NCBI RefSeq assembly: GCF_902158555.1
Contig: NZ_CABGGS010000006.1
Coordinates: forward strand, 75,068-99,067
Reading direction: 5' to 3'
Source of the DNA: Klebsiella spallanzanii
GTDB lineage: Bacteria > Pseudomonadota > Gammaproteobacteria > Enterobacterales > Enterobacteriaceae
Length of the DNA stretch: 24,000 nt
Part shown: in pieces, positions 940 through 22,499 of the stretch
How the letters are laid out: each line of letters begins with the position of its first letter
Position numbering within the stretch: the first letter of the stretch is position 1
Position numbers and translations under genes: made by a program
Notes under the pieces: generated by a model
Seen by the model: only the letters and a program-made list of their open reading frames with translations
Databases searched by the model: none
What the model was told of the DNA's origin: nothing

Positions 940-999
940 CGTTTAACTATTCCTAATTTATTTAACACATCCCTGTGAAGTCATTAATTCATCTTTTTA

Positions 1000-2265
1000 T
1001 CAAACCGTCATGGCATTATCGCTAATATTTTCCGATTTTCTCTTCCCCGACAAGGTAAAGGCGGAGATTAACGTGACGGCCAGGGCGATTCCGCCAAGGA
1101 TCATATAGGTATCCTGAAAACCGATCCGGTCATACATATTGCCAGCGAAAGCAGAGAGGAAAATCGCCGCCACCTGTTTGGAAAACTGGAAGCCGACCAG
1201 ATAAATCGTCGCCGACAGGCGGACATCAAATACGCCGGTAATATATTTAAACGCACCCACCAGCAGGAACGGCACTTCCAGCGCATGGAGCATTTTCAGG
1301 GCCACTACTTCCGCAGCGGTCGTGGCGAACGAGGAACCAATCATCCTTGCCGCCATCACCATCCCAGCAATCAGCAGCGTGTTCTTCGCCCCGATGCGGT
1401 TAATAATCCACGGCGAGCTGAACATAATTATCGCGTTACAAATTTCCCCGGCGGTGGTCGCAAAACCAAAGGCGCGGGTGCCTGATTCCGGAGTGGCAAA
1501 GAAGGATTTAAAGAAGGTGGCAAACTGCTGATCGAAGACGTCATACACACAGGCTACGCCAATCACGTAGAGGATAAACATCCACATTTTACGCTGGCGG
1601 AACATGCTCACGGCGGTTTTTAAATCCACCGCCGGGCGATTCGCGCCCAAAGAATCCATCACCTGGGCGCTCTGGCTGGCCTGCGGTTTAGCGATAGCCA
1701 CCAGCACAACCAGCACCAGCGCGGCGGCCGATCCCATCCAGAACACCCACTCCGGGTTTACGCTAAACAGCATCCCGGCCGTGGTCGCGCACAGCGCCCA
1801 GCCGAGGCAGCCAAAAGTACGCGCCTTGCCGTACTCGAACCCGCTATTGCGGCTCACGCGTTCGATATAGGCTTCCATCGCCCCGGCACCGGCGGAGAAA
1901 ACAAAGCCAATATAAGCACCGCCGCTTAGCGCGCCGAGCCAGATATTGGTTTTCAACAGCGGCGCAAAAACGTAGAGGAAAAAGGGAGCAATCAGCACCA
2001 GCAGCACGGTCACTATCCACATCAGGTGCTTTTTCAGCCCGAGCTTGTCGGAAATCACGCCCAGGATGGGCTGAAAGCAGATAGCGAACAGCGACAGGCT
2101 GGAGAAAACGATACCGGTCTCGGTTTTATTCAGGCCGATGACATCCGATAGCCAGATCGGCAAAAACGGAAAGCAGGTGGCCATAATGAAAAAGTAGAGA
2201 AAGAAGAACAGCCCGAAAATCCAGAAATTGGGGTTGTTTTTATGGGTACAGACGGTCGGGTTCAT
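1000..2265 (-). CDS. rafB: LacY-family oligosaccharide:H+ symporter (raffinose permease type)
   Basis: Near-colinear with LacY (NPNFWIFGLFFFLYFFIMATCFPFLPIWL, LGVISDKLGLKKHL, FGCLGWALCA, YDVFDQQFATFF, KYITGVFDVRLSATIYLV). Start trimmed to ATG at 2265 (MNPTVCTHKNNPNFW), which has a GAGGA Shine-Dalgarno. The track's 15-aa N-terminal extension has none. Confidence 0.85.
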   Translation of the reverse strand: MNPTVCTHKNNPNFWIFGLFFFLYFFIMATCFPFLPIWLSDVIGLNKTETGIVFSSLSLFAICFQPILGVISDKLGLKKHLMWIVTVLLVLIAPFFLYVFAPLLKTNIWLGALSGGAYIGFVFSAGAGAMEAYIERVSRNSGFEYGKARTFGCLGWALCATTAGMLFSVNPEWVFWMGSAAALVLVVLVAIAKPQASQSAQVMDSLGANRPAVDLKTAVSMFRQRKMWMFILYVIGVACVYDVFDQQFATFFKSFFATPESGTRAFGFATTAGEICNAIIMFSSPWIINRIGAKNTLLIAGMVMAARMIGSSFATTAAEVVALKMLHALEVPFLLVGAFKYITGVFDVRLSATIYLVGFQFSKQVAAIFLSAFAGNMYDRIGFQDTYMILGGIALAVTLISAFTLSGKRKSENISDNAMTV

Positions 2266-2306
2266 TGTGTTTTCCTCAAAAAGGGCCGACGCGCGGCCCG
2301 TCGCCA

Positions 2307-4430
2307 TCACACGCGTTGCAGGCCAATCAAAATGGCGCTTTCCGGGTCAAGGATTGGCAGCGCCAGTCCCGCCTGTTGTAACCACTCGCCGCTTACGGTC
2401 TGCGGCGTCGTCATCCATTCCGGCAGCTTACGCATCGTATGGCCACCCTCTCCTGTAATTTGAATATTCGGATGATCGAGCAGCGTCACCTGATAGCGCG
2501 CGCCCGCGTCCAGGCCCGCCACGCGCAGCGGCGCCATCAGGGTGTAGTCCGGCATCGCCAGCTGGCTGACGAGGAAAATAGCCTGGCTCTTATCTTCACT
2601 GACCACGCCGTGCGCGAGCGTCGTGGAGTCCGGCATATCTGCCCGCCACTGCACGCCGTGATGGATTAAGTCGCGCCACTGCTTATGCAACGCCGCATAT
2701 TTGCGATAACCCGCGCGCTCTTGTTCGTCAGCGTTCACCGGGTCCAGCTCAAGGCCCATATGGCCGAACAGCGCCGTCAGGCCGCGAAAAGCAATACTGT
2801 GCTGGCGGAAGGTGGCGTGGCAGTGGTGGTTGCCGATGTGCGCGCCCATCACTTCCGGTGGGAAGAAGTAGCTCATGCCGCGCTGAATGGTATTGCGCTC
2901 CAGGGCATCGTTATTGTCGGAAGCCCAGAAGCGGTGGCTGCGCTTCAGCACTTCATAGTCGATACGCCCGCCGCCGGAGGAGCAGGATTCAAACTCGATA
3001 TGCGGGAAACGAGCCACCAGCGTATCCAGCAGGCGGTAGAACTGACGGGTCTGCGCGTCGGCGGCGGCTTTGCCGTTATGCCCTGGCTGCACCAGCTCGC
3101 GGTTCATATCCCACTTCACATAGTCCACGGCGTGCTCGCCCAGCAGCCAGCTCATCCGCTCCAGCAGATAGTCAAAGGCTTCGGGGATATTCAGGTTCAG
3201 CACAAACTGATGACGCCCAGGGATCAGCGTATAGCCCGGCAGCGCCAGCACCCAATCCGGATGTGCGCGATACAAATCCGAATTCGGGTTAATCATTTCC
3301 GGCTCAACCCAGATACCAAACTCCATTCCCAGCGACTTCACGTGGTCGATAACCGGGGCCAGGCCGTTAGGGTATTTTTTCTCGTCGAGATACCAGTCGC
3401 CGAGCGCCGCCCAGTCGTCATTGCGCCCTTTAAACCAGCCGTCATCGATGATAAAGCGCTCAACCCCCAGCTCCGCCGCCTCATCCGCCATGCGCATGAT
3501 GTACTGCGGGTCGTGGTCGAAATAGATCCCTTCCCATGTATTGAGGTGCACCGGGCGCGGTTTGTTGCCGGGGAAACGAATAATCTGCTCGCGCAGGTAG
3601 CGGTGGAACTGCTGGCTCATGCCGTTCAGCCCTTGCGCGGAGTAGCTGGCGTAGAGATTCGGGGTCCACAGCGTTTCGCCTTCCGCCAGCGCCATTTCGC
3701 CCGGCAGGTAGAGGGCTTCCGCCTGCAGATAGCGGCGACCATCGGTTTTGGCCTCCGCCCGCAGACGGTGGTTGCCGCTCCAGCCCAGATGCACGCCCCA
3801 CACTTCTCCCTGCATCTCGCTAAAGGCTTTGCTACCGGTAATCAGCGCCGGAAAATGTTCATGAGAGGTGCGTCCGCGGCGGTTTTCCAGCACGAAGCTG
3901 TCATGCTCCAGAATCAGACGATGGGGCTGGAATTCACGGATCCAGCGGCCATGAAAGGCCATCACTTCGCGGGCGCGCTCGGCGACCGGCAGCGTAATCG
4001 CCAGACGGTCCACCTGCCAGGGCTGCGCGCGCAGGTTGGTTAAACCATGACGAACGCTCAGTACGCCGCTGCTGTCGAGCTGGATTTCACTGCATAACCG
4101 CAGGCCTGCCTGCGAGTCTTCGCTGGTAATCGTTAAATTTTGCCCATCCTGCACCACATCGGTGGTGGTAAAAATCGGCGAGGCGTCCAGACCCTGGCGA
4201 TGACCTTCAATACCCGGCGCGCCGAACAGACCGTGGCCCAGCTCGGCCATTAACGTTACCGGTGAATCAACGTCCACGCGGCTATTGGCGACCGGACGAG
4301 CCAGACTGACCGCATCCTGCGGCGAAAAGTGGCTTAAATGCGGCCCCCAGTAGATAATTTCGGCGAACGGATGGGTTTTTATCACCACATCAGCTACAGC
4401 GCTTTGCAGGCGTAAAATCGAATCAGACAT
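2307..4430 (-). CDS. rafA: Alpha-galactosidase, GH36 (raffinose/melibiose hydrolase)
   Basis: 707 aa from ATG at 4430 (MSDSILRLQSA), preceded by GGAG. GH36 hallmarks are present: YVKWDMNRE and FESCSSGGGRIDYE. Its size matches RafA-type enzymes, and it sits between a LacI-family regulator and a LacY-family permease. Confidence 0.9.
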   Translation of the reverse strand: MSDSILRLQSAVADVVIKTHPFAEIIYWGPHLSHFSPQDAVSLARPVANSRVDVDSPVTLMAELGHGLFGAPGIEGHRQGLDASPIFTTTDVVQDGQNLTITSEDSQAGLRLCSEIQLDSSGVLSVRHGLTNLRAQPWQVDRLAITLPVAERAREVMAFHGRWIREFQPHRLILEHDSFVLENRRGRTSHEHFPALITGSKAFSEMQGEVWGVHLGWSGNHRLRAEAKTDGRRYLQAEALYLPGEMALAEGETLWTPNLYASYSAQGLNGMSQQFHRYLREQIIRFPGNKPRPVHLNTWEGIYFDHDPQYIMRMADEAAELGVERFIIDDGWFKGRNDDWAALGDWYLDEKKYPNGLAPVIDHVKSLGMEFGIWVEPEMINPNSDLYRAHPDWVLALPGYTLIPGRHQFVLNLNIPEAFDYLLERMSWLLGEHAVDYVKWDMNRELVQPGHNGKAAADAQTRQFYRLLDTLVARFPHIEFESCSSGGGRIDYEVLKRSHRFWASDNNDALERNTIQRGMSYFFPPEVMGAHIGNHHCHATFRQHSIAFRGLTALFGHMGLELDPVNADEQERAGYRKYAALHKQWRDLIHHGVQWRADMPDSTTLAHGVVSEDKSQAIFLVSQLAMPDYTLMAPLRVAGLDAGARYQVTLLDHPNIQITGEGGHTMRKLPEWMTTPQTVSGEWLQQAGLALPILDPESAILIGLQRV

Positions 4431-4466
4431 CAGACATCTCCACAACAAGGAATGCCTTACTGTTGA

Positions 4467-4482
4467 TCCGAAACGTTTCGGA
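4467..4482. promoter_or_regulatory. LacI-family operator, perfect 16-bp palindrome TCCGAAACGTTTCGGA (raf O-site type)
   Basis: Perfect dyad with central CG in the rafR-rafA intergenic region. It is paired with a second near-identical copy 22 bp away. Confidence 0.75.
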
Positions 4483-4488
4483 CGCCAA

Positions 4489-4502
4489 CCAAAACGTTTC
4501 GG
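4489..4502. promoter_or_regulatory. Second LacI-family operator, CCAAAACGTTTCGG (one mismatch from a perfect dyad)
   Basis: Same core AAACGTTT as 4467-4482. On the minus strand the two sites flank TTGGCG, a candidate -35, matching the twin-operator layout described for the plasmid raf operon. Confidence 0.65.
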
Positions 4503-4505
4503 ATC

Positions 4506-4521
4506 CGTGATCGAGTTCAGG
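4506..4521. promoter_or_regulatory. Candidate CRP site (cGTGA-N6-TCAgg) upstream of the raf operators
   Basis: Seven of 10 core positions match TGTGA-N6-TCACA with correct spacing, and the site lies upstream of the rafA promoter region. This is a weak match. Confidence 0.3.
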
Positions 4522-4544
4522 AAATTAATCTGATGGCAAGGGAA

Positions 4545-5540
4545 TCAGGCGGTTTCGCCGGGGATAAATTCAGGCTGCCAGAGCACCTGGAGAGAGGCGA
4601 GATCGTCACCGGCAATCAAGCGACGAACCATGCTGGCTATCTGGCGCCCAACGCCCTGCCGGGTAGATTGAATCACCGCGCCAACCGGGGTTTCAATGAT
4701 GCTGTCCTGCGGCAAGCCGTCGTAAACCACCAGCGAAACGCGATTTTCGCCGGTAAGACGTCCCTGCTGGGCAAGAGCCATCGCCGCGCCGTCACCGTGG
4801 CTGTTGCAATCGGTGACAATCGCCGTGGGCGGTTCAGGCAAACGCAGCAGCTCCATCGTTGCCTGAAACCCACTGCGGCGGGTTGGCGACACGCTGCGCA
4901 GCCAGTCCTCGGCTAATCCGGCTTCGCGTAGCGCTTGCAGATAACCGTTGCGGCGTTGAGTAATAAACGCCTGATTATTATTTTCGCTCAATAACGCGAT
5001 GCGCTGATGCCCCTGGCTAATCAGGTGGCGGGTAGCGCGATAGGTTCCGGCCTGGTTGTCGAAATCAAACCAGGCGTAGGGTTGCGGCAGGCGGCTGCGG
5101 CCCAGGGCCAGAAACGGAAAACCCGATGAGAGCAGCTGCGCCAGACGCGGATCGTCATCGAGGGTATGCGCGACAATCAACGCATCAACGCGACGACTCT
5201 GCACCATACGCATATACCCGTGCTTGTCGGCTTGTTCATCATCGGCAATCAGCAGTAAATCAATCTCATAGCGCGCCAGCTCGTGGCTGATTTCACCGAC
5301 CATATCGAGAAAAACGTTGTTATTCAGCGGCGCAGGACGCACGGGGAAAACGAGGCCAACGGCGTCAATTTTGCCCATCTTCAGACGACGGGCGAAGGTA
5401 TTCGGGCGATATCCGCGACGCTGCGCTTCGGCTTCCACGCGGGCGCGCGTCTCCTGCGACACGTCGTCGTAGCCGTTTAACGCACGGCTGACGGTCGTGA
5501 CCGAGATCCCAAGTTCTTTAGCAATGGCTTTCAACGACAT
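4545..5540 (-). CDS. rafR: LacI-family transcriptional repressor (raffinose operon repressor type)
   Basis: 331 aa. N-terminal LacI HTH (MSLKAIAKELGISVTTVSRALNGYDDVSQETRARVEAEAQRRGYRPN) plus a periplasmic-binding-protein-like core. It lies directly upstream of rafA, with palindromic operators between them. Confidence 0.8.
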   Translation of the reverse strand: MSLKAIAKELGISVTTVSRALNGYDDVSQETRARVEAEAQRRGYRPNTFARRLKMGKIDAVGLVFPVRPAPLNNNVFLDMVGEISHELARYEIDLLLIADDEQADKHGYMRMVQSRRVDALIVAHTLDDDPRLAQLLSSGFPFLALGRSRLPQPYAWFDFDNQAGTYRATRHLISQGHQRIALLSENNNQAFITQRRNGYLQALREAGLAEDWLRSVSPTRRSGFQATMELLRLPEPPTAIVTDCNSHGDGAAMALAQQGRLTGENRVSLVVYDGLPQDSIIETPVGAVIQSTRQGVGRQIASMVRRLIAGDDLASLQVLWQPEFIPGETA

Positions 5541-7284: not shown

Positions 7285-7318
7285 TGCCGGGTGGCGGCTA
7301 ACGCCTGACCCGGCCTAC
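7285..7318. repeat. REP (repetitive extragenic palindrome) element between convergent operons
   Basis: tGCCGGGTGGCGGCTAACGCCTGACCCGGCctac contains stem GCCGGGT (7286-7292) / ACCCGGC (7308-7314), with an inner GGCG/CGCC pairing and the typical trailing CTAC. It closely resembles the enterobacterial REP consensus. Confidence 0.7.
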
Positions 7319-7348: not shown

Positions 7349-7903
7349 TTACTGTATTTGTGCTTCGATCCAACGGGTAACGGATGCAATCTCCAGCGGC
7401 TGCTGCTGATCAACCGTAAACACCGGCCCCAGGCGCATCGGTTCCACCCGTTGCGCCAGTAGCGCCAGCTCCGGGAGATACTCTTCACCCGGATGTCCCG
7501 GTTTGCGATCCTGCAACCGCGCGGCGTAGCGCGATACCGCAAGTTCTGGCGAGATGTGATTCCAGACCTCAAGGACCTTTTCAACGCCAGCCTGCTGAAG
7601 CAATTGCTGCAATGTTTCACGCGGCTGAAAACCAAACCAGGCGTCGACCAGCCAGACGCAGCCCGCCGGAGACTGACCGACAATCGACCAAATAACCTCA
7701 TAGGCGGCGCAGCCCAGCTGCCGATTGAAGGGTCGATCAATGTCAGTAAAGCGCGCCATAAAGGGCTCTTTAATACCGTCAATGGTCAGCAGCGGCAGAT
7801 TAAATGTTGCCGAGAGCTGCCGGGTGACGGTGCTTTTACCCGATGCGGGAATGCCGTTAATTAAAATCACCGTTTTGCAGCCGGGAGTGAGATGTCTGTT
7901 CAT
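7349..7903 (-). CDS. Small P-loop kinase/ATPase (AAA_33 / gluconokinase / chloramphenicol-phosphotransferase-like fold); substrate unknown
   Basis: 184 aa with Walker A ILINGIPASGKST near the N-terminus. The C-terminal VFTVDQQQPLEIASVTRWIE resembles the GntK tail VLVVDIDQPLEGVV by eye. Its ATG overlaps the stop of the upstream EIIA gene (ATGA at 7903-7900). Confidence 0.6.
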   Translation of the reverse strand: MNRHLTPGCKTVILINGIPASGKSTVTRQLSATFNLPLLTIDGIKEPFMARFTDIDRPFNRQLGCAAYEVIWSIVGQSPAGCVWLVDAWFGFQPRETLQQLLQQAGVEKVLEVWNHISPELAVSRYAARLQDRKPGHPGEEYLPELALLAQRVEPMRLGPVFTVDQQQPLEIASVTRWIEAQIQ

Positions 7904-8337
7904 AACAGCGCGACGACCTCCTCCCGGCTGCTGGCGGCCCGCAGCTTAGTCATCGTTTCGTTATTATCGAGCAACGCGATAATCGCGCGGATCCCCTCCT
8001 CAATATGGGCATTGCTGTCCTGCGCGCCGAACATAATGACAATATCCGCCTTCTCGCTATCGGCAAACTGAATCGGTTTGTTCAGCACCACCAGGCTAAA
8101 ACAGTTACGCCTTACGCCGCATTCGGGCCTGGCGTGGGGGATCGCCACCCCTTCATCAAAAACGTAATACGCACCATGGTGCAGGGTATTATCAATCACC
8201 GCCCGGCCGTATTCTGCCGAGATATACCCTTTTGCGACCAGCGGACTGGCCGCCAGGTGAATCACCTTCTGCCAGTCGGACTCCGTGACGCCGACCTGAA
8301 TGGCATCGGCCTCAATAAGTAATTCTTTTATCGTCAT
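7900..8337 (-). CDS. PTS EIIA component, fructose/mannitol/ascorbate type (PTS_EIIA_2)
   Basis: 145 aa. The active-site region GVAIPHARPE and the overall length and pattern are typical of UlaC/SgcA/PtsN-type EIIA. A GGGAG Shine-Dalgarno lies 5 nt before the ATG. Confidence 0.8.
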   Translation of the reverse strand: MTIKELLIEADAIQVGVTESDWQKVIHLAASPLVAKGYISAEYGRAVIDNTLHHGAYYVFDEGVAIPHARPECGVRRNCFSLVVLNKPIQFADSEKADIVIMFGAQDSNAHIEEGIRAIIALLDNNETMTKLRAASSREEVVALL

Positions 8338-8360
8338 GATGACTCCCTAAGAATCTAATC

Positions 8361-8630
8361 CTAAATATTGCGGCGAATAACATTGCGCAACTCATCAATA
8401 CGAATAAAAAGCGCATCTATTTCTTGCCGATGTGTTTTGCTTTTGGCATACACCGACAGCGCCCGGTTATACATCAGCATTAACGCTTTCTGTACTTCGC
8501 CATTACCTGGGTTGCCCTGTAATTCGCCTTCCAGCCGGACTATTTCCTCCGCCAGCTGGCGGGACTGTTGGTCATAATCCTGCGGCGGATTATTTTCTTT
8601 TTTCCACAGCGTTTTCAAAGATTCAAACAT
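8361..8630 (-). CDS. Hypothetical 89-aa cytoplasmic protein, predicted helical hairpin; no family recognised
   Basis: Its ATG at 8630 is preceded by a strong GGAGGAG Shine-Dalgarno. It fits exactly into the gap between the aldolase and EIIA genes on the same strand. The sequence has two amphipathic segments separated by GNPGNG and a basic tail RNVIRRNI. Confidence 0.6.
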   Translation of the reverse strand: MFESLKTLWKKENNPPQDYDQQSRQLAEEIVRLEGELQGNPGNGEVQKALMLMYNRALSVYAKSKTHRQEIDALFIRIDELRNVIRRNI

Positions 8631-8687
8631 AGCGAGCTCCTCCCTGGCGAACTACAGGGCAACGGAATACCATTAAATAACGAAGGT

Positions 8688-9530
8688 TTATTTAAACAGA
8701 GCGATTTTTTCCATTAATACATGAGTGACCGCGTTATTCGCCGGAATTAAAAACTTGCGCACGCTGTCATTCACTTTGCCTTTTTCAAAGGTAGTTTTGC
8801 ATTGATCGACCCACTGGACGTTCATTTCCGTGCCGACATTCACTTTATTGATGCCCTCGGTAACGGCCAGGCGCATGTCCTCATCGCTGACGCCGGTACC
8901 GCCATGGAGCACTAACGGCACGCCGGTGGCGGCGCTAATTTCTTTCAGCCGCTGGTGCTGGATCTGCGCCTTGCCGGTATACAGGCCGTGTACCGTCCCC
9001 ACGGAGACCGCCAGCATATCGACCTGTGTCTCATCAACAAAGCGTTTGGCATCTTCCACCGTGGTAAAGCAGATATCTTCCGCAGCCACCGCTTTACCAT
9101 CTTCCGAGCCGCCGATAGCGCCAAGTTCGCCTTCTACCGTGATATTTCGCGGGCGCGCCATCTCTACCACTATCCGCGTATTGCCAATATTTTCCTCCAG
9201 CCCTAAATGGGAACCGTCGTACATTACGGAAGAAAACCCGGCATCCATTGCTGTTTCAATAGCGCTAATATCGGAGCAGTGATCCAGATGCAGGCAGGTC
9301 GGCACATTTTCACTTTCCGCTAATGAACAAACGGCATCCACCAGTAAACGATAACCAAGATATTCCGCCGTCCCGGTCGAGATTTGAATCATTAATGGGC
9401 TATTGCTTTTTTGCGCCGCTTTAAAAAAAGCGGGCAGCATTTCAATACAGTGCAAATTAAACGATCCAATGGCTTTAAATTTTCTTTCCTGCGCAATTTT
9501 CAGAATATCGTTGAAGTTATACAGACTCAT
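8688..9530 (-). CDS. Class II (metal-dependent) ketose-1,6-bisphosphate aldolase, GatY/KbaY/FbaA family
   Basis: CLHLDHCSD (Zn-binding HxDH motif), EGELGAIGG, AVSVGTVHG and PLVLHGGTG motifs are present. Start placed at ATG 9530 (MSLYNF), about 9 nt after GGGG. The alternative ATG at 9536 has only a 3-4 nt spacer. The 5' end overlaps the end of the EIIC gene. Confidence 0.85.
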   Translation of the reverse strand: MSLYNFNDILKIAQERKFKAIGSFNLHCIEMLPAFFKAAQKSNSPLMIQISTGTAEYLGYRLLVDAVCSLAESENVPTCLHLDHCSDISAIETAMDAGFSSVMYDGSHLGLEENIGNTRIVVEMARPRNITVEGELGAIGGSEDGKAVAAEDICFTTVEDAKRFVDETQVDMLAVSVGTVHGLYTGKAQIQHQRLKEISAATGVPLVLHGGTGVSDEDMRLAVTEGINKVNVGTEMNVQWVDQCKTTFEKGKVNDSVRKFLIPANNAVTHVLMEKIALFK

Positions 9531-10884
9531 GAACATTTTCCCCTTTTGGCTTCGCTGATTTACCGTTTACGAACCATGCCAGTGCGGCAACAAAAACAAT
9601 GAATAAGGCGACAAACAACCAGTTATTCTGGAAAGCGTGGCCTAATACCAGACCGGAACTGATCACGTCCGAATCGCTAAAGGTGACGCCGGTAAAGCCG
9701 TAGCTTTCCAGCATCGGCACCAGAATCGCAGGCAGGAAGGTGATAAACAGGCCATGAACCACGCCGCCAATCATCGCCCCGCGGCGGCCTCCCAGCGCGT
9801 TACCAAATACGCCCGCCGTACCGCCAGCAAAGAAGTTGGTTAACAGACCGGGCAGAATCATCGCCAGGCCGAACATCGGGAACACCAGCATGCCGATGAT
9901 GGAGCCGACGGTGGTCGCCAGGAAACCGACAATCACCGCATTGGGCGCATAGGGGAACAGAACCGGGCAATCCAGCGCGGGCTTGGCGTCCGGGACAATG
10001 CGCATTGCGATACCGCGAAATGCCGGAACCAGTTCATTAAGCAGTAAGCGAACGCCGCTGTAGAGCACGAAGACGCCCGCCACAAACTGAATGGACTGCA
10101 TAAAGGCGTACATCAGGTAATTAATACCGTTGGAGAACTGACCAATATATTCCGGGCCCGCCGCGACCGCCGGGATGAGGTACATCGGCACCATCACCAC
10201 CGCCATCGCGAGGTAGGTATCCTGGAGGAACTTAAAGTTATCCGGCAGTTCAAGGTCTTCCGTTGAGCGGGAACCTTTACCCACCACTTTCGCCACCGCC
10301 GCCTGAACAAGATAACCAATGGTACAGAAGTGCCCCAGCGCCACGTCATCAGAGTCGGTAATCCGCCTGACCACCGGCTGTGCCAGCGCGGGCATCAGCA
10401 CCGCCATTACGCCGCCGAAAATCCCGCCAGTTAAAATTAACGGCAGCCCGGTCAGTCCGGCTTTATAGCCAATCACCGCGCCAATAGTCGCCATCCATAG
10501 CAGCGCTTGCCCGGTCAGGAAGATATATTTCAGCGGCGTGAGGCGGGCGATAATAATATTGACGGCAAAGATCACCAGCAGCGTCAGCGCCACTTCAGAA
10601 CCTAATTCCCGATTGGCTAATCCGGCAATAGCGGCAACATCGGTAATGTAGCCTTTCATGCCAAATCCCTGGGTAAAGATATCGTTGAGGAACGTTAGCG
10701 TGGCGACAATAATGTTGATTCCGGCCATCATGATTAAGAAGCCGAGCAGCGTTTTAAACGTTCCTTCTGCCGTTTTGCCCGGTGATTTTTTTTGCAAAAT
10801 CAGGCCCAGCATCGCAATAAAGGCGATTAATATCGAAGCCTGACCGAGCAAGTCTTTGACGATAAACTCTACAAAGCTATTCAT
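9517..10884 (-). CDS. PTS EIIC permease, L-ascorbate (UlaA/SgaT) family
   Basis: 455-aa polytopic membrane protein with the size and N-terminal pattern of UlaA/SgaT-type EIIC. It is flanked by cognate UlaB-like EIIB. Its start overlaps the EIIB stop by 8 nt. Confidence 0.8.
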   Translation of the reverse strand: MNSFVEFIVKDLLGQASILIAFIAMLGLILQKKSPGKTAEGTFKTLLGFLIMMAGINIIVATLTFLNDIFTQGFGMKGYITDVAAIAGLANRELGSEVALTLLVIFAVNIIIARLTPLKYIFLTGQALLWMATIGAVIGYKAGLTGLPLILTGGIFGGVMAVLMPALAQPVVRRITDSDDVALGHFCTIGYLVQAAVAKVVGKGSRSTEDLELPDNFKFLQDTYLAMAVVMVPMYLIPAVAAGPEYIGQFSNGINYLMYAFMQSIQFVAGVFVLYSGVRLLLNELVPAFRGIAMRIVPDAKPALDCPVLFPYAPNAVIVGFLATTVGSIIGMLVFPMFGLAMILPGLLTNFFAGGTAGVFGNALGGRRGAMIGGVVHGLFITFLPAILVPMLESYGFTGVTFSDSDVISSGLVLGHAFQNNWLFVALFIVFVAALAWFVNGKSAKPKGENVHESV

Positions 10885-11191
10885 AGTCCGCTACCTTCAG
10901 GTTATGCTCTTTTAAGAATGCAACGATCTTAGTTTCAATCTCATCTTTATCCGTGAGCTTATTCAGTACGACGACGCGCTTAATTTCCTCCTCGCTGGCA
11001 TCGGCCGTTAATATATCGGCAAAGGTTTTTTGCGTCAGGATCATATCGGATTTAAATGCCCCAGCTTCAGAAACGGTGGTGTGTTCAATATGCGCCGGAA
11101 TTTCCAGTTTCTTTAAAACAGCTTTTGCCGTCATTTCAATGGCAAAGCTTGAACCGAGGCCGCAGCCACATACGCAAAGAATTTTTAGCAT
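10877..11191 (-). CDS. PTS EIIB component, UlaB/lactose-type (PTS_IIB) with N-terminal active-site Cys
   Basis: 104 aa from ATG at 11191, preceded by GAGGAG with a 7-nt spacer. MLKILCVCGCGLGSSFAIEM matches the UlaB signature (ILAVCGNGQGSS). Confidence 0.8.
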   Translation of the reverse strand: MLKILCVCGCGLGSSFAIEMTAKAVLKKLEIPAHIEHTTVSEAGAFKSDMILTQKTFADILTADASEEEIKRVVVLNKLTDKDEIETKIVAFLKEHNLKVADYE

Positions 11192-11202
11192 GTAGGGTCT
11201 CC

Positions 11203-12183
11203 TCAAATAATATTGAGTTGTTTGGCAAGTTTATAATGGTGTCCTTCGGTATCAACCAGACGTTTTTTCATACTAACTAAATCAATCGGAATCGGTTTGT
11301 TACTTGAATTAATTATAATGGCTTTATTTTTCATCCCGGACTGGATACAACGAACCACTTCGCTGGCCATAATCGTGCCCTGATAAATTTCTTCGCAGGT
11401 TGGGTCACCACTGCGTAAACCGTAGCCCACGATGGTTTTACGAATCCGTACGCCAATTCTCGGTTCAAGCTGCTTTATCATGGTATCAATGGCCCCCTGG
11501 AATCCGGGGGAGTACTCCCTGGTGTAGCCTTCGGAGCAGAGAATCACAACGCTGTTCTGCCTGGCCAGTTTCTGCTTTACGCGCTCGGCCAACGTTTCCA
11601 GCGGCATCTGTGATTCCGGGATAAGGGCAATATCAGCATTACATTTTATCGCCGACTGCAACGTTAGCTCTCCACAATAACCTCCTAATATTTCAACCAT
11701 AAATACGCGGCCCGGCAATGCTCTTCCGGTATTTCTTAAACGGGAGACTTCTTTAATAATCTGCTCACAAGCGGTAGAGAAACCAATGGTATAATCGCTA
11801 CCGTACACATCGTTATCAATCGTCATCCCAACGCCAAAACAGTTAATATCAAATTCGCTGAGGGTATTAAGAAACTGGAGGCTACCGTCACCGCCGGCCA
11901 TAATCAGCACATCAACACGCAGTGATTTAATTTTTTTGGCAATAACTTCATATTCACTACGCTGTAGTTTTCGGCTAGTACGTCCGGAGGTAATAATCGG
12001 AATAGCGGCAATCGAGAAATCGACCAGATCGCGCCAGGCGACCACTTGATGTTTTTTATCCAACAGTCCAGGTATTCCACCATTAAAAATGGTGATCTCA
12101 GCATTCGCCATTTTGGCAATCTGGAATATAAAATTATTAATTCCAGAGACATCTCCACCACTAATAACAATGCCAATTTTCAT
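11203..12183 (-). CDS. ATP-dependent phosphofructokinase-family (PfkA-type) sugar-phosphate kinase; divergent, substrate uncertain
   Basis: 326 aa from ATG at 12183, preceded by GGAGG. PfkA motifs are present: KIGIVISGGDVSGINN, LIMAGGDGSLQ, GVGMTIDNDV and TIGFSTA. However, VEILGGYCGELTL replaces the canonical VEVMGRYCGDLTL. The gene is very AT-rich. Confidence 0.8.
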   Translation of the reverse strand: MKIGIVISGGDVSGINNFIFQIAKMANAEITIFNGGIPGLLDKKHQVVAWRDLVDFSIAAIPIITSGRTSRKLQRSEYEVIAKKIKSLRVDVLIMAGGDGSLQFLNTLSEFDINCFGVGMTIDNDVYGSDYTIGFSTACEQIIKEVSRLRNTGRALPGRVFMVEILGGYCGELTLQSAIKCNADIALIPESQMPLETLAERVKQKLARQNSVVILCSEGYTREYSPGFQGAIDTMIKQLEPRIGVRIRKTIVGYGLRSGDPTCEEIYQGTIMASEVVRCIQSGMKNKAIIINSSNKPIPIDLVSMKKRLVDTEGHHYKLAKQLNII

Positions 12184-12522
12184 TGCCCGCCTCCGTTGTT
12201 TTCTCTGCCAACATTTTTCCTCGACTTCAAGCCTGTTATTTGCAATAGAGATCACAATATGCCGATAATTTCGCTCCAGCCTAATATTGACAACCGATTT
12301 ATTACGCTATTTTTTGTGATCAATATCTCTTTTATAAAGTGAGATCGGCTTAACAGTTAATTTTTTATTCTGTTTAAGATCATTAAGTTACTTAATTCGA
12401 TAATTCCCTGTGCTGGCTGCGTGTTTCTGCCAATAAATCCTTTTTTGCGGAAAGAAAGAAATGTGATAAACCGCGCATTTTTTTACGGCAGGAAGGTTTT
12501 CCTCTAACCTGCCCGCTCTGAA

Positions 12523-13111: not shown

Positions 13112-14557
13112 ATGGAGTCATCCTTACGTTTAGTGGCGATCACCAACTGTCCTGCGGGAATCGCCCACACCTATATGGTGGCGGAAGCGCTGGAGCAAAA
13201 AGCGCGTTCGCTCGGCCATACCATTAAAGTCGAAACCCAGGGTTCAAGCGGCGTGGAAAACCGGCTGACCAGTGAGGAAATTGCCGCCGCGGATTACGTG
13301 ATTCTGGCAACAGGCCGCGGCTTAAGCGGTGAAGACCGCGCGCGCTTCGCCGGGAAAAAGGTCTACGAGATCGCCATTTCTCAGGCGCTGAAAAATATTG
13401 ACCAGATTTTTATGCAGTTGCCTTCACATTCACAGCTGTTTGCCGCCGATAGTGGCGTCAAGCTGGGTAAACAGGATGTACAGCAGGGAAGCGTGATGAG
13501 CCACCTGATGGCGGGCGTTTCCGCCGCGCTGCCGTTTGTTATCGGCGGCGGTATTCTGGTCGCCATCGCCAATATGCTGGTGCAGTTCGGTTTACCCTAT
13601 ACGGATATGTCGAAAGGCGCGCCGTCTTTTACCTGGGTCGTCGAATCCATCGGCTATCTCGGTTTCACCTTTATGATCCCGATTATGGGCGCATACATCG
13701 CGTGGTCGATTGCCGATAAACCGGCGTTCGCCCCGGCGTTTCTGGTGTGCTATCTGGCGAACGATAAAGGATTGTTAGGTACCCAATCCGGTGCGGGATT
13801 TCTCGGCGCGGTCGTGCTGGGGCTGGCAATCGGCTACTTCGTGTTATGGTTTCGCAAGGTACGTCTCGGCAAGGCGCTTCAGCCGCTGCTCGGCTCGATG
13901 CTGATCCCGTTCGTCACTCTGCTGGTGTTTGGCGTGCTGACGTACTACGTCGTCGGACCAGTGATGTCCGACATCATGGGTGGTCTGCTGCACTTCCTGA
14001 ACACTATTCCGCCATCAATGAAAATGGGCGCAGCTTTCCTTGTTGGCGCAATGCTGGCGTTCGACATGGGCGGACCGATCAACAAAACCGCGTGGTTCTT
14101 CTGCTTCTCGCTGCTGGAAAAACATATCTATGACTGGTACGCCATCGTCGGCGTGGTGGCGCTGATGCCGCCCGTCGCCGCAGGCATCGCTACCTATTTA
14201 GCGCCAAAACTGTTTACCCAGCAGGAGAAGGCCGCCGCCAGCAGCGCGATTGTGGTCGGTGCAACCGTCGCCACCGAACCGGCGATCCCTTACGCGCTGG
14301 CCGCGCCGCTGCCGATGATTACCGCCAATACACTCTCCGGAGGCATTACCGGCATGCTGGTGATCGCCTTCGGAATCAAACGTCTTGCGCCGGGTTTAGG
14401 TATCTTTGACCCGCTGATCGGCCTGATGTCGCCTGTAGGTTCATTTTATCTGGTGCTGGCAATAGGCCTGGCGCTAAACATTTCGCTAATCATCATTCTG
14501 AAAGGATTGTGGCTCAAACGTAAAGCCGCGCAGCAGGAGCTTGCCCATGAACATTGA
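13112..14557 (+). CDS. frvB: PTS fructose-like EIIBC component FrvB
   Basis: 481 aa. The N-terminal EIIB(Fru) domain has the active-site motif ITNCPAGIAHTYM, followed by a polytopic EIIC(Fru) domain. Confidence 0.85.
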   Translation: MESSLRLVAITNCPAGIAHTYMVAEALEQKARSLGHTIKVETQGSSGVENRLTSEEIAAADYVILATGRGLSGEDRARFAGKKVYEIAISQALKNIDQIFMQLPSHSQLFAADSGVKLGKQDVQQGSVMSHLMAGVSAALPFVIGGGILVAIANMLVQFGLPYTDMSKGAPSFTWVVESIGYLGFTFMIPIMGAYIAWSIADKPAFAPAFLVCYLANDKGLLGTQSGAGFLGAVVLGLAIGYFVLWFRKVRLGKALQPLLGSMLIPFVTLLVFGVLTYYVVGPVMSDIMGGLLHFLNTIPPSMKMGAAFLVGAMLAFDMGGPINKTAWFFCFSLLEKHIYDWYAIVGVVALMPPVAAGIATYLAPKLFTQQEKAAASSAIVVGATVATEPAIPYALAAPLPMITANTLSGGITGMLVIAFGIKRLAPGLGIFDPLIGLMSPVGSFYLVLAIGLALNISLIIILKGLWLKRKAAQQELAHEH

Positions 14558-17543: not shown

Positions 17544-20147
17544 ATGGCGCTGTCGGCGAAAGAAAAGTTATTTCACAAAATACTCACCCATTATGCGCAG
17601 AAACCCGCGGGCTTCACGGCTCAGGACTGCGCGGACTTTATGCAGGTTAACCGCAGCGTCATCAGTCATTACCTCAACAGACTGTGCGACGATGGCCATC
17701 TCAGTAAAGAAAATACCCGCCCGGTCCGCTTCTTTGTGCAGCAAAATGGCGTAAAAAACGCGCAGGCGTCTCGCATAGTGTCGAAAAAGCACGATGCCTT
17801 TCAGCAGTTGATCGGCGCACAGGGCAGCCTGGCTGAAGCTATCGCGCTTTGTCGCTCGGCGGTGGATTATCCCGGCGACGGTCTGCCTGTCCTGCTCTCC
17901 GGAGAAAGCGGTGTCGGGAAAAGCCATCTGGCGGCGCTGATTTATCAATATGCCGTCGAGCGCAGCGTGATCGCGGCAGATAAACCCTTTGTGGAGCTTA
18001 ACTGTGCCGATTACGCCAACAACCCGGAGCTGCTTTCGGCGACGCTTTTCGGCTATACGCGCGGTGCGTTCACCGGGGCCGACCGCGAAAAGCGTGGGGC
18101 CTTTGATGATGCGGATGGCGGATTTCTGTTCCTCGATGAGGTCCATCGGCTATCAGCTGAGAACCAGGAAAAATTATTCCTGTTTATGGACAAAGGCTAT
18201 TTCTATCGTCTTGGCGATAACCGCACGCGCCATCCGGCGTCGCTGCGCTTTATCTTCGCCACCACGGAGAATATCGACACCGTCCTGCTCAACACCTTCC
18301 GCCGACGCATCCCGGTTCGCGTAACGCTGCCCAACTATATTTCGCGCCCGCTTACCGAGCGCGTCGCTCAGGTTAGCCATTTTTTGCATCAGGAAGCGCT
18401 CAGCCTGCGCCGAAATATCCATCTCGATAATCAGCTGATGCATCAGTGGGTCACCTCGCCGGTGCGCGGCAATATCGGTGAGTTAAAAAATCAGATCAAA
18501 GTGATGTGCGCCAGCGCCTGGAGCGATAATCGCGATGCCGACGTCATTACGCTACAAGACCACTCATCCGGCGGCGAAATAATTAGCATTACCGCCAACC
18601 CTCATGATGAAGTACTGAATGCCAGCCAACTGCTGCCAAAAGCGATGCGCGATGAGGTTATTTTTCGCGACTTTTGCCACAGCGGTAACGTGCTGTTACT
18701 GAATCGCAAAATGGAGCAATTGCTAACCACGGTTAGCGGCACGGTTGCCGCCGAGTCGCTGTACAGCGGTTATATCTGGCAGAACACCGTTCATGCCCTG
18801 GAGGAGCTGGAGAGTTTGACCGGCATCTCCTGTAGCCTGGAGATCCGCAAAGCCGTCTGGCTCTGCGTCAGCTATGCGCTGCATGCTCCTCAGGAGGCGG
18901 TTAAAGCTGGCGAACTGCAGGCGATTGCCGACTATGTTTCCGCAAAGGCGCGGCTGCTCGCCGAGGAGTGCCTCGCTTTGCTGAGCAAACATGTCACCCG
19001 CCAGCCGCTGCCCCTGCTGCTTCCGCTATTAAGCTGCGCTTTTCATACCCTGGCCGGTGAAGACGACCCCATTCAGGGCATTATCGTTTCCCACGGTCGC
19101 GCCACCGCATCGAGCATTGCCGGTATCGCCAATCAGTTGACCGGCGGCTACTACTTTAAAGCCTTCGATATGGCCAACGCGACCTCCACCAGAGAAATCA
19201 TCGACCTGCTGATCGCCCACGTTTCCCGCCTTAAGCAAGGAGCCGGGCTGATTATCCTGGTGGATATGGGATCGCTGAAAGAGATCTACGAAGAGATTAA
19301 GCTCCACCTGCATGGTGAACTGTTGGTTATCAACAACGTCAGCACCGCTATGGCGCTGGATATTGCCGCCAAAATTCAGGACAAGCTGTCGATGGAAGCG
19401 ATTATTGAGAGCGCCAAAGGGGCCTATGAGGTTGAAACTCGCTACTACGCCGGGATTTTACCGGGGAATAAAATCATTATCTCCTGCATCTCCGGCGAAG
19501 GGATCTCCCGCAAGCTGAAAGATATCGTCCAGCGATTTCTGGCGCAGGAAGAGATCGACATCATTACGATGGAGTATGACGATCTGAAATGGAAAATCGC
19601 CCACGCTGACCCGGCGCTGAACGGTACCAGGCTTATCATCACCACGACCGATCTGGAAGCGGGCTATATTCCACTGCTAAGCGTAGAGCAGTTGATTAAA
19701 GAAAAGTCGCTGGTGTTAAAACGCGATTACTTCAACGGGCTGCTGATGGAAGGTGGTCTGGAGCCGATGATTGACGAGGTAGTGAAGCTGTTTACCGTCG
19801 AAGGCGTCGCCAGCCGTCTCAACTTCCTCAATCCGGTGGTGATTATTGATGAAGTCGAAGCGGTGATTAAACAGTATGAATCCTTCTACAAAATCCATTT
19901 TGAAAGCTACCTGCGCATCAATCTGTTTATGCATATCGCGCTGATGATCGAGCGAGTGATGGTGAATAACGGCGTGCGCCATCGCGAAGAAGCGGGGCTG
20001 ACGCTGGAACAGCAGGCTTTCGTCGCCGTCCATGACACCTTTTTCCTGGCGCTGAACCGCAAATACAACATTACCCTGCCGCTCACCGAAGTGCTGATGA
20101 TTTATGAAATCATGGAGCCGTGGATCGCTTTTGACCCAAGCAATTAA
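17544..20147 (+). CDS. LevR-type sigma-54-dependent enhancer-binding protein (HTH, AAA+, PRD, EIIA-Man-like, EIIB-Gat-like, PRD)
   Basis: 867 aa. Walker A is LLSGESGVGKSHLA (nt 17901-17924). The sigma-54 contact loop GAFTGA is intact (nt 18063-18080). Walker B is FLFLDEVHRL. These are followed by GIIVSHGRATASS (EIIA-Man-type His, about residue 517), KIIISCISGEG (EIIB-like Cys, about residue 648) and a C-terminal PRD-like LFMHIALMIERV (His about residue 798). Confidence 0.85.
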   Translation: MALSAKEKLFHKILTHYAQKPAGFTAQDCADFMQVNRSVISHYLNRLCDDGHLSKENTRPVRFFVQQNGVKNAQASRIVSKKHDAFQQLIGAQGSLAEAIALCRSAVDYPGDGLPVLLSGESGVGKSHLAALIYQYAVERSVIAADKPFVELNCADYANNPELLSATLFGYTRGAFTGADREKRGAFDDADGGFLFLDEVHRLSAENQEKLFLFMDKGYFYRLGDNRTRHPASLRFIFATTENIDTVLLNTFRRRIPVRVTLPNYISRPLTERVAQVSHFLHQEALSLRRNIHLDNQLMHQWVTSPVRGNIGELKNQIKVMCASAWSDNRDADVITLQDHSSGGEIISITANPHDEVLNASQLLPKAMRDEVIFRDFCHSGNVLLLNRKMEQLLTTVSGTVAAESLYSGYIWQNTVHALEELESLTGISCSLEIRKAVWLCVSYALHAPQEAVKAGELQAIADYVSAKARLLAEECLALLSKHVTRQPLPLLLPLLSCAFHTLAGEDDPIQGIIVSHGRATASSIAGIANQLTGGYYFKAFDMANATSTREIIDLLIAHVSRLKQGAGLIILVDMGSLKEIYEEIKLHLHGELLVINNVSTAMALDIAAKIQDKLSMEAIIESAKGAYEVETRYYAGILPGNKIIISCISGEGISRKLKDIVQRFLAQEEIDIITMEYDDLKWKIAHADPALNGTRLIITTTDLEAGYIPLLSVEQLIKEKSLVLKRDYFNGLLMEGGLEPMIDEVVKLFTVEGVASRLNFLNPVVIIDEVEAVIKQYESFYKIHFESYLRINLFMHIALMIERVMVNNGVRHREEAGLTLEQQAFVAVHDTFFLALNRKYNITLPLTEVLMIYEIMEPWIAFDPSN

Positions 20148-20264
20148 CCCTTCGCGGCCAGCGTCGACTGGCCGCTCTCGACACTGCATAAGCGGGCAAT
20201 TCCAACACTGAAAACAGCGTCCAAAAAACAAATTTTATTCTTTAAAAACATACAAATAAAAACA

Positions 20265-20280
20265 TGGCACGCTGATTGCA
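20265..20280 (+). promoter_or_regulatory. Sigma-54 (RpoN) -24/-12 promoter TGGCAC-GCTGA-TTGCA
   Basis: Exact match to the TGGCAC-N5-TTGCW consensus. It lies 41 bp upstream of the EIIA-Man ATG and directly downstream of a sigma-54 EBP gene. It is preceded by a long A/T tract (20221-20262). Confidence 0.9.
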
Positions 20281-20320
20281 AAATCCCTGGCAGATACCTG
20301 AAAAGATTAAGGAACGCGAA

Positions 20321-21978: not shown

Positions 21979-21990
21979 CTGGAGCTACAC

Positions 21991-22488: not shown

Positions 22489-22499
22489 GCGAGGTTGCT

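Follow-up and report, generated by a model that had tools for sequence, protein, structure and literature searches.

A conserved seven-gene cassette of Asc-family PTS, PfkA-family kinase and class II aldolase genes in Klebsiella spallanzanii and other Enterobacterales

Organisation of the cassette

We analysed a 24,000-nucleotide stretch of the Klebsiella spallanzanii assembly GCF_902158555.1 (contig NZ_CABGGS010000006.1, positions 75,068 to 99,067), referred to here as the window. Between positions 7349 and 12183 of its minus strand, seven intact open reading frames (ORFs) follow one after another. In the order in which they are read, they encode a PfkA-family kinase, the EIIB and EIIC proteins of a phosphotransferase system (PTS), a class II aldolase, a protein of 89 residues, the PTS EIIA protein, and a P-loop protein (Table 1). 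A first-pass annotation made from the letters of the window had described this group as a tightly packed operon, and its description of the layout was borne out. The ORF table and our junction measurements agreed with it in every spacing. Pfam searches supported the gene identities, strongly for PFK, PTS_IIB, EIIC-GAT, F_bP_aldolase, and PTS_EIIA_2, and at 1.6e-5, just under the cut-off, for AAA_33. No isomerase, dehydrogenase, or regulator gene was found within the operon, as had been stated, and the hand counts of GC were exact on recount (40/120 at 11221-11340 and 39/60 at 13501-13560).

Start codons were picked by conservation before the junctions were measured. The kinase and EIIB genes are separated by an 11-nt gap, EIIB and EIIC overlap by 8 nt, and EIIC and the aldolase overlap by 14 nt, with a second possible aldolase start at 9536. 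Gaps of 57 nt and 23 nt lie before and after the 89-aa ORF, and EIIA shares a 4-nt ATGA overlap with the P-loop gene. Identical gene overlaps are seen in the Serratia and Pantoea annotations, and from the packing and its conservation we infer that all seven genes would lie on one transcript. A terminator scan found no canonical terminator 3' of the P-loop gene, at 7286-7314, where a hairpin resembling a repetitive extragenic palindromic (REP) element sits between the convergent 3' ends of the P-loop gene and azlD; it is a possible transcript 3' end or stabiliser. In the composition profile, the 5' part of the cassette and the spacer upstream of it have 38-47% GC, against ~55-60% in the surroundings, and the promoter with the first two genes stands at 38-44% in a genome of 55-57%.

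Table 1. Coordinates of the cassette genes and of the sequence elements around them, numbered from the first letter of the window
Feature	Position	Strand	Basis or remark
PfkA-family kinase, 326 aa	11203..12183	-	Pfam PFK 1e-61
PTS EIIB, 104 aa, ATG start, Cys motif CVCGCGLGSS	10877..11191	-	PTS_IIB 7.6e-9
PTS EIIC, 455 aa, Asc (UlaA/SgaT) family	9517..10884	-	EIIC-GAT 4.2e-122
Predicted class II (IIb-type) ketose-bisphosphate aldolase, 280 aa	8688..9530	-	F_bP_aldolase 3.9e-89
Small helical protein, 89 aa, TPR-like	8361..8630	-	Homology to Firmicutes TPR proteins
PTS EIIA, 145 aa, mannitol/fructose/ascorbate type, His68 in IPHA	7900..8337	-	PTS_EIIA_2 1.4e-27
Predicted P-loop kinase, nucleoside monophosphate (NMP)-kinase fold, 184 aa	7349..7903	-	AAA_33 25.6 bits (cut-off 27), structure matches
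CRP-like box 1, TGCGCGGTTTATCACA	12463..12478	-	Centre ~286 nt before the kinase ATG; -279 to -291 in 54/54 loci
CRP-like box 2b, TGTTAAGCCGATCTCA	12340..12355	-	Subset of genera, -162 to -166
CRP-like box 2, AGAGATATTGATCACA	12315..12330	-	-138 to -143 in 54/54 loci
CRP-like box 3, TGTGATCTCTATTGCA, right arm TTGCAAAT almost invariant	12241..12256	-	-64 to -69 in 54/54 loci
Candidate sigma-70-like promoter TTGTCA-17-AATTAT	12265..12293	-	Promoter scan, 9/12 matches
GAAAAAT, candidate -10 of a class II CRP-dependent promoter	12213..12219	-	Conserved motif GGAAAAATG in the upstream alignment
REP-like GC-rich hairpin GCCGGGT...ACCCGGC, 3' of the last gene	7286..7314	-	Read from the sequence

Distribution and conservation in the Enterobacterales

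One genome per species was scanned for close relatives of the kinase, which yielded 55 loci in at least 16 genera (Klebsiella, Raoultella, Citrobacter, Kluyvera, Phytobacter, Pluralibacter, Superficieibacter, Mangrovibacter, Buttiauxella, Cedecea, Dryocola, Scandinavium, Serratia, Pantoea, Erwinia, and Chimaeribacter), and all seven window proteins were then run against these loci by tblastn. We found the complete set of seven genes in identical order at 52 of the 55 loci, well beyond what chance would produce; two of the others were truncated by contig ends, and one was without the aldolase. The nearest locus was that of Klebsiella sp. MISC125 (97%), and K. oxytoca also carries the cassette (L051). 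Identity to the window proteins was 86-99% for EIIC, 77-99% for the aldolase, 77-97% for the kinase, 74-98% for EIIB, 67-98% for EIIA, 55-95% for the P-loop protein, and 43-94% for the 89-aa protein. About 65 more metagenome loci carry the same cassette type. On a 33%-GC metagenome contig (L115, 7998-12963), the seven-gene set is complete, P-loop kinase included, and follows the proteobacterial order, with 66% identity to the window in the kinase and 84% in EIIC, and a resolvase gene lies ~1.5 kb upstream; this low-GC host carries a divergent lineage of the cassette.

Selection was computed for six of the genes, all but the aldolase. All six are under purifying selection, with dN/dS values of 0.01-0.26 at a dS near or past saturation. 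The ranges were 0.01-0.07 for both the kinase and EIIC, 0.01-0.12 for EIIB, 0.05-0.17 for EIIA, 0.07-0.19 for the 89-aa protein, and 0.06-0.26 for the P-loop protein. Because its dN/dS is low, the 89-aa ORF can be taken as a real gene.

The chromosomal flanks of the cassette vary. The frv operon, which lies beside it in the window, adjoins it in 6 of the 55 loci, and the neighbours in Serratia and Pantoea are unrelated. An azlCD pair with an XRE gene adjoins the cassette only in the Klebsiella-Kluyvera-Phytobacter group, in which the synteny on the azlCD side suggests mostly vertical descent after arrival. Some strains show what looks like decay of the cassette: Enterobacter sp. R1 (L053) has an interrupted kinase match, while in Dryocola sp. 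BD586 (L054) the aldolase is absent and the kinase match falls to 66%. One assembly labelled Pseudomonas lundensis I31 (L044, JAWQUI010000002.1) holds a Serratia-type cassette with Serratia-type flanks (DeoR, NudK, and adenosine deaminase, 92-96% identical) and is probably contaminated or mislabelled. Carriage on a plasmid or phage was considered and dropped, the lone "plasmid" match having turned out to be a K. pneumoniae chromosome.

The cassette was absent from 5,426 complete E. coli genomes searched by megablast and blastn. The sole weak match was rejected as a counterpart, as it is a different Asc-type PTS with transketolase genes and a LacI regulator. Some E. coli strains have this unit; in LH50-c (L060, NZ_CP100500.1, 872811-887138), other Asc-type IIA, IIB, and IIC genes are followed by split transketolase genes, with the LacI-family regulator in divergent orientation, and the unit is unrelated to the seven-gene cassette.

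On an annotated K. pneumoniae chromosome the genes bear generic names ("AAA family ATPase", "hypothetical protein", "PTS sugar transporter subunit"). A full-text literature search returned no publication on this gene set and none that assigns it a substrate or pathway. The claim of the first-pass annotation that the set has no assigned, characterised pathway thus agrees with the literature and with the generic PGAP names. Its term "orphan operon" was right in that there is no regulator here, but the neighbourhood survey shows no oddity of a single genome: the cassette is Enterobacterales-wide and has homologous operons in Firmicutes.

Homologous operons outside the Proteobacteria

The three nearest kinase clusters outside the enterobacterial one all lie within homologous operons. 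In a 27%-GC uncultured bacterium (L062, L065, L066), the gene order is PRD regulator, kinase, IIB, IIC, a 98-aa protein, aldolase, and IIA. The Marinococcus operon (L067) reads PRD regulator, kinase, IIB, IIC, a 128-aa protein, and aldolase, and the Pelosinus operon (L068) reads PRD regulator, kinase, IIB, IIC, a 132-aa TPR protein, and aldolase. The order regulator, IIA, kinase, IIB, IIC, TPR protein, aldolase was observed on a further contig (L070) and on seven metagenome contigs. Each of these Firmicutes-type relatives has a PRD-type activator, and the operons of Marinococcus, Pelosinus, the 27%-GC bacterium, and other Firmicutes-type contigs open with a 640-705-aa HTH-Mga-PRD-EIIA_2 regulator. 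Compared with the window proteins, identity in these relatives is 62-66% for EIIC, 46-55% for the aldolase, 34-46% for the kinase, and 30% for the small protein. The Firmicutes operons are without the P-loop kinase, yet they have the kinase, the TPR protein, and the aldolase. A different arrangement was seen on a 54%-GC metagenome contig (L069, 8001-8999 and neighbours), where the order is GntR, IIA, IIB, IIC, a SIS isomerase, and the kinase, with no aldolase.

The kinase, EIIB, and small-protein genes have a GC fraction of 0.34-0.51, and this holds also in hosts whose flanks have 49-62% GC. The composition gradient that had been offered as a sign of horizontal acquisition is therefore real but not recent; acquisition by this genome in recent times was rejected because the per-gene pattern is unchanged across the 49-62% GC hosts. 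The pattern reflects an old, probably cross-phylum origin. Given the PRD-type regulators, the greater divergence among the Firmicutes versions, and their low GC, low-GC Gram-positive bacteria are the probable source of the module, from which it would have been passed on in an ancient transfer.

A divergent kinase and a class II aldolase

The kinase is 27% identical to E. coli PfkA and scored under every NCBIfam PFK cut-off (NF002872, 209.2 vs 253; TIGR02482, 166.8 vs 371). Residues were mapped by alignment in the window protein and five relatives, with an E. coli PfkA reference sequence that had been checked against 1PFK. The catalytic residues are kept (G11, R72, GDGS, T125, D127, and D129), as are the arginines that hold the 6-phosphate (R162, R243, and R252) and E222. 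In PFKs, G104 goes with ATP dependence, and the kinase carries it, consistent with an ATP-dependent enzyme. Other positions were substituted throughout the window protein and the five relatives (R171G, H249Y/F, M169L/F, and G124M, with V in one), and the allosteric site is lost: R21F, R54W, K213 and K214 replaced, and R25 in a gap or variable between alignments. By its residues, the protein belongs to a catalytically intact but divergent, non-allosteric PfkA subfamily with the signature G171, Y249, M124, and no allosteric site.

Among 1.84 billion cluster representatives searched, only one full-length cluster exceeded 50% identity to the kinase, and it consists of enterobacterial proteins (at the 90% identity level, one kinase cluster by itself already counts 1,637 sequences). 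Single clusters at 46%, 38%, and 34% came next, and these and a relative at 32% all lie inside PTS operons; generic PFKs stood at ~30%. Judged by these identities, the subfamily is isolated among the PFKs. PGAP labels the kinase 6-phosphofructokinase, and several database records mislabel it as "permease" or "diphosphate--fructose-6-phosphate 1-phosphotransferase", which are propagated errors. The first-pass annotation had considered any PfkA-family enzyme unusual in a tagatose-type route. That view has to be withdrawn, as there is precedent: in the E. coli gat and aga pathways, the housekeeping PfkA phosphorylates tagatose-6-phosphate. The oddity is rather that the cassette has a dedicated, divergent paralogue.

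The aldolase passes only the general model TIGR00167 (260.1 bits vs 215.6) and lies under the specific cut-offs of TIGR01859 (285 vs 343), GatY (254 vs 383), and KbaY (182 vs 542), so that no assignment specific to fructose-1,6-bisphosphate (FBP) aldolase, GatY, KbaY, or YdjI was reached. The motifs HLDH, TVHG, and LHGG are invariant in all versions of the module, and D83-H84, H181, and H209 (280-aa numbering) are invariant in six versions; we take these residues to correspond to D82/H83/H180/H208 of AgaY. The nearest solved structures are Bacillus-type FBP aldolases and KbaY, and no GatZ/KbaZ-like gene was found linked to the cassette. We predict a catalytically intact class II ketose-bisphosphate aldolase.

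These two enzymes could also be read as part of a fructose or fructose-6-phosphate (F6P) module, in which the PTS would give F6P or a near-precursor, and a plain non-allosteric PFK and an FBP aldolase would form an unregulated entry to glycolysis. The conserved PfkA catalytic and phosphate-binding residues fit such a module, as does the PGAP name of the kinase. Among NCBIfam models, the aldolase matches those of FBP aldolases best, its nearest structures are of the Bacillus FBP type, and the L069 contig pairs the kinase with an isomerase in place of an aldolase. However, both enzymes fall under every curated FBP-specific cut-off, and the kinase combines its 27% identity to PfkA with subfamily-wide changes at substrate contacts (R171G, H249Y, G124M, and M169L/F). 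Since pfkA, fbaA, and several fructose PTS systems (the adjacent frv among them) are already present in these bacteria, a redundant pair kept at a dN/dS of ~0.03-0.05 across phyla would be hard to explain. We consider the F6P module unlikely.

A PTS of the Asc family

EIIC passes NF009551 (830.6 bits vs 657) and NF006919, "PTS ascorbate transporter subunit IIC" (479.8 vs 380), but fails the UlaA equivalog NF009549 (400.9 bits vs 890), and its best solved relative is UlaA (4RP8, E 1.7e-43). EIIB matches ascorbate-type IIB models of NCBIfam. The closest NCBIfam models to EIIA are the ascorbate and mannitol IIA equivalogs, both under cut-off. The phosphorylatable residues, His68 of EIIA (IPHA) and the Cys of EIIB (CVCGCGLGSS), are present, and the three make up a complete Asc-family Enzyme II as separate IIA, IIB, and IIC proteins.

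The vitamin-C contacts known from UlaA structures comprise 13 residues (PMC6048161). Aligned to UlaA, EIIC keeps four of the 13 (H194, D314, F362, and R288) and has changed the other nine (T86V, Y87A, H135Q, I136A, Q139W, Q195F, M410F, S59I, and I358L). Because most of these contacts are replaced, L-ascorbate appears unlikely as the substrate. Neither the ulaG/ulaDEF genes (lactonase, decarboxylase, and epimerases) nor UlaR was found in the window or at the annotated Serratia, Pantoea, and K. pneumoniae loci. The likeness to UlaABC (SgaTBA) consists of a three-protein Enzyme II, an EIIC of the same fold family, and the expected phosphorylation of a terminal hydroxyl. Compared with UlaABC and its UlaDEF/UlaG enzymes, the cassette has an EIIC that is not orthologous, a kinase and an aldolase instead of the lactonase, decarboxylase, and epimerases, and no UlaR.

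The TPR-like protein and the P-loop kinase

The 89-aa protein has no match in Pfam or NCBIfam, and every one of its 134 homologues is named "hypothetical". In its AlphaFold model (pLDDT 80), a short N-terminus, amphipathic and basic, leads into three helices. A fold assignment was attempted and rejected, with a best Foldseek E value of 0.8 against the PDB and sequence matches only to designed helical repeats. The protein aligned along its length with the 98-132-aa TPR proteins of the Firmicutes operons (30% identity, E 1e-5), and the small proteins share the motifs MF..(L/F)K..K at the N-terminus and ..ID.L....IR at the C-terminus; the enterobacterial form is about one TPR unit shorter. The first-pass annotation had called the 89-aa protein an orphan. 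Instead, it is a TPR-like partner of the kinase, permease, and aldolase in every relative that contains the aldolase, and because its homologue accompanies these three proteins, we count it as a core component of the module. In the spacer before its gene (8631-8687, minus strand), a short hairpin, CCCTG...CAGGG, lies right upstream of the GGAGG ribosome-binding site and might modulate translation of the small protein.

The P-loop protein has 446 detectable homologues, of which the named ones are all from Enterobacterales and are called "AAA family ATPase". Its Walker A motif, GIPASGKST, is invariant, and so are several polar motifs. The AlphaFold model has a pLDDT of 93.4. By sequence, the nearest PDB entry is 2RHM, a "putative kinase" (E 1.9e-10), and by structure the Foldseek matches at probability 1.00 were 2RHM (TM 0.78), followed by PSTK, adenylate kinases, the PFK-2 kinase domain, and gluconate kinase. 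By its modelled fold, the protein is predicted to be a small-molecule kinase. It is confined to the proteobacterial form of the cassette, including that on the 33%-GC contig. The earlier remark had set an unrelated small kinase beside an orphan protein; of the two, only the P-loop kinase is a lineage-specific addition, and the 89-aa protein belongs to the core and is kept across phyla.

The presence of this second kinase bears on another alternative, in which the PTS would import something other than a ketohexose (a sugar acid, lactone, heptulose, or pentulose) and the P-loop protein would perform an essential step, such as phosphorylating a cleavage product or, like gluconate kinase, the sugar acid itself. 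A ketohexose route has no need of a second kinase, and the P-loop protein is under purifying selection and resembles gluconate kinase and the PFK-2 kinase domain in fold. The founding member of the Asc family, to which the permease belongs, has an anionic substrate, and H194, D314, and R288 of UlaA are kept, R288 being the residue that contacts the charged O3 of ascorbate. On the other hand, the Firmicutes operons are without the P-loop kinase, and the core pathway would thus be independent of it. The three distal-phosphate arginines of PfkA are kept, which fits a phosphorylated ketose of about hexose length, and no dehydrogenase, lactonase, decarboxylase, or isomerase is linked to the cassette in enterobacterial loci with annotated flanks. 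A substrate outside the ketohexoses seems to us quite unlikely.

A conserved control region upstream of the kinase gene

Conservation extends over ~300 bp ahead of the kinase gene, although synonymous sites are saturated. At 54 loci we looked for CRP-like boxes, defined as at least 7 of 10 matches to TGTGA-N6-TCACA, and three of them (boxes 1, 2, and 3) recurred at every locus (Table 1). Box 2 is a perfect match (10/10) in 15 of the 54. The distance from box 2 to box 3 is 74 bp and that from box 1 to box 2 is ~148 bp, which correspond to ~7 and ~14 helical turns. The 33%-GC metagenome contig likewise has three boxes, at -73, -146, and -281. The additional box 2b was observed in Klebsiella, Raoultella, Citrobacter, Kluyvera, Phytobacter, some Pantoea/Erwinia loci, and one Serratia locus (L032).

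The region also holds a TGTCAA motif and an A/T-rich, -10-like hexamer, conserved across genera at fixed spacing. The transcription start implied by GAAAAAT would put box 3 at about -42.5, while the TTGTCA-17-AATTAT promoter would put it just downstream of the start. The boxes are read here as putative CRP sites and the start position is likewise a prediction. A sigma-54 promoter at a conserved TTGCA was rejected, as the -24 GG is missing in all species, and an Rfam scan of the leader gave no match at E <= 1 (no riboswitch or other known RNA).

The cassette has no conserved regulator gene as a neighbour, and no HTH-PRD-EIIA/EIIB regulator was found at any of the 55 enterobacterial loci. Three candidates for a cognate regulator were dismissed: a DeoR gene, upstream of the cassette in Serratia, that is restricted to some Serratia and to the one Serratia-like assembly labelled Pseudomonas, an XRE-cupin gene that goes with azlCD in one clade only, and frvR, which accompanies frvABX and is adjacent in only 6 of the 55 loci. 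That the operon has no cognate regulator, as had been noted, is therefore correct for this locus but incomplete, given that relatives have an activator with PRD and EIIA domains and that a three-box CRP-like region travels with the cassette.

The lack of a dedicated regulator would suit a cryptic or mainly regulatory PTS, normally silent and acting by phosphotransfer cross-talk, as has been proposed for overexpressed EtcABC of K. pneumoniae. That system (KPN00353-KPN00349) has the order EIIA-EIIB-EIIC-PfkB kinase-class II aldolase and forms one transcript by reverse transcription PCR (PMC5770620), and it has overexpression phenotypes only (PMC6629953, PMC5770620). The adjacent frv operon is likewise without a known function, and a promoter and first two genes of 38-44% GC in a 55-57% GC genome are typical of silenced DNA. 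Against this stand the strong purifying selection on the kinase and the five other genes for which it was computed, the invariant catalytic motifs of the aldolase, the gene order kept across genera and phyla, intact catalytic residues, and an elaborate control region that is itself conserved. Because selection, gene order, intact catalytic residues, and the conserved control region concur, we argue for regular use as a metabolic pathway and regard a cryptic PTS as very improbable.

EtcABC was also considered as the published identity of the cassette, and this was rejected, as it is a different operon with a PfkB kinase. The two resemble each other in combining a PTS, a kinase, and a class II aldolase, in having a substrate without assignment, and in occurring in the same organism group. 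They differ in that EtcABC lies at a separate locus, has another gene order and a PfkB-type kinase, and is without the TPR-like protein and the P-loop kinase. EtcABC is reported to be absent from K. oxytoca, whereas the cassette is present there.

Proposed pathway

We propose, at a probability of roughly 60%, that the seven genes form one conserved catabolic operon for sugar import, two phosphorylations, and cleavage to glycolytic trioses. The idea of a self-contained module running from PTS to kinase to aldolase was already in the first-pass annotation, and it still looks sound with what appear to be a complete Enzyme II, an intact kinase, and an intact aldolase. UlaABC phosphorylates ascorbate at C6, and in the first step of the proposed pathway, the permease would similarly import a ketose and phosphorylate a terminal hydroxyl. 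The PfkA-like enzyme, a proposed ketose-phosphate 1-kinase, would then put a second phosphate on C1, and cleavage of the resulting 1,6-bisphosphate by the aldolase would yield dihydroxyacetone phosphate and glyceraldehyde-3-phosphate. Because the distal-phosphate arginines are kept while the sugar pocket is remodelled, a phosphorylated, hexose-length ketose other than F6P is favoured. Our best guess for the substrate is a ketohexose other than fructose, of the tagatose/psicose/sorbose class.

Expression would be driven by cAMP-CRP through the ~300-bp region with its three helically phased CRP-like boxes. This region would have been inherited with the cassette, replacing the PRD-type activator of the Firmicutes relatives. 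More speculatively, the TPR-like protein may hold the soluble enzymes at the permease or help to assemble them there, and the P-loop kinase may trap sugar that is free in the cell or a by-product.

Several points weigh against this reading. The residues for F6P phosphorylation are all present in the kinase save R171 and H249, and the kinase could be an ordinary non-allosteric F6P kinase. The L069 contig, with the kinase beside a SIS isomerase and no aldolase, suggests that the kinase product there can be managed by the housekeeping FBP aldolase. The aldolase itself scores about equally on FBP- and tagatose-bisphosphate-aldolase models, so its stereospecificity is not readable from sequence. 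The proposed pathway needs neither the P-loop kinase nor the TPR-like protein. Both candidate promoters agree with the conserved motifs, and box 3 might serve as an operator instead of an activator site. Finally, the direction of transfer is read only from regulator type, diversity, and GC content.

A more far-reaching version of the catabolic operon is, in our view, rather doubtful as a whole. It holds that this is a cross-phylum PTS pathway for a sugar new as a PTS substrate, that its PfkA subfamily is a new ketose-phosphate 1-kinase, and that the TPR protein is an obligatory, membrane-tethered adaptor. It further holds that, in Proteobacteria, the PRD activator was swapped for a three-site phased CRP promoter and a P-loop kinase of new specificity was gained.

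Comparison with known systems and implications

The routes for tagatose-6-phosphate, galactitol, and N-acetylgalactosamine (LacABCD, gat, and aga) share the logic of the catabolic pathway proposed here, from PTS through a second phosphorylation and a 1,6-bisphosphate to aldol cleavage. In gat and aga, a class II aldolase (GatY/KbaY) is likewise used, and a PfkA enzyme provides the second phosphorylation. The cassette differs in several respects: its kinase is a dedicated PfkA paralogue and not the PfkB-type LacC or the housekeeping PfkA, its permease is of the Asc and not the Gat, Lac, or Man type, and its aldolase fails the GatY and KbaY cut-offs. It is also without GatZ/KbaZ, a dehydrogenase, and a DeoR-type repressor, and has the TPR-like protein and the P-loop kinase instead. 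PRD-regulated PTS operons of Firmicutes, with activators of the MtlR/LicR/ManR type, offer a further comparison: the homologous modules there have the regulator, whereas the enterobacterial copies have the CRP-box region.

Klebsiella pneumoniae and its relatives commonly carry the cassette, as do many Enterobacterales associated with plants or the gut, but its annotation does not go beyond generic names. If its substrate were named, important pathogens and plant associates would have one more carbon source on their metabolic maps. The specificity of a PfkA subfamily that pipelines call "6-phosphofructokinase" would be defined, and the conserved TPR-like partner of the PTS would gain a function. 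The exchange of a PRD activator for three phased CRP-like boxes with no local regulator would make a clean natural case of the rewiring of a transferred operon. As E. coli K-12 is without the cassette, a gain-of-function test would be straightforward.

Neighbouring modules in the window

The window is a series of carbohydrate modules, among which the cassette lies between a raffinose/melibiose-like unit and frv. The genes frvA, frvB, frvX, and frvR beside the cassette were confirmed by NCBIfam equivalogs. The raffinose/melibiose-like unit (349-5540, minus strand) comprises a LacI-family regulator, a GH36 alpha-galactosidase, a LacY-family permease, and a Mac-type acetyltransferase. Positions 17544-23300 of the plus strand hold a unit that includes a LevR/DagR-like sigma-54 activator of 867 aa, which carries EIIA-man and PRD domains. 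Genes for EIIA-man, for a GH88 unsaturated glucuronyl hydrolase, and for IIB and IIC of the sorbose/mannose type come after it. This last unit looks like a mannose-family PTS for unsaturated, uronate-containing disaccharides.

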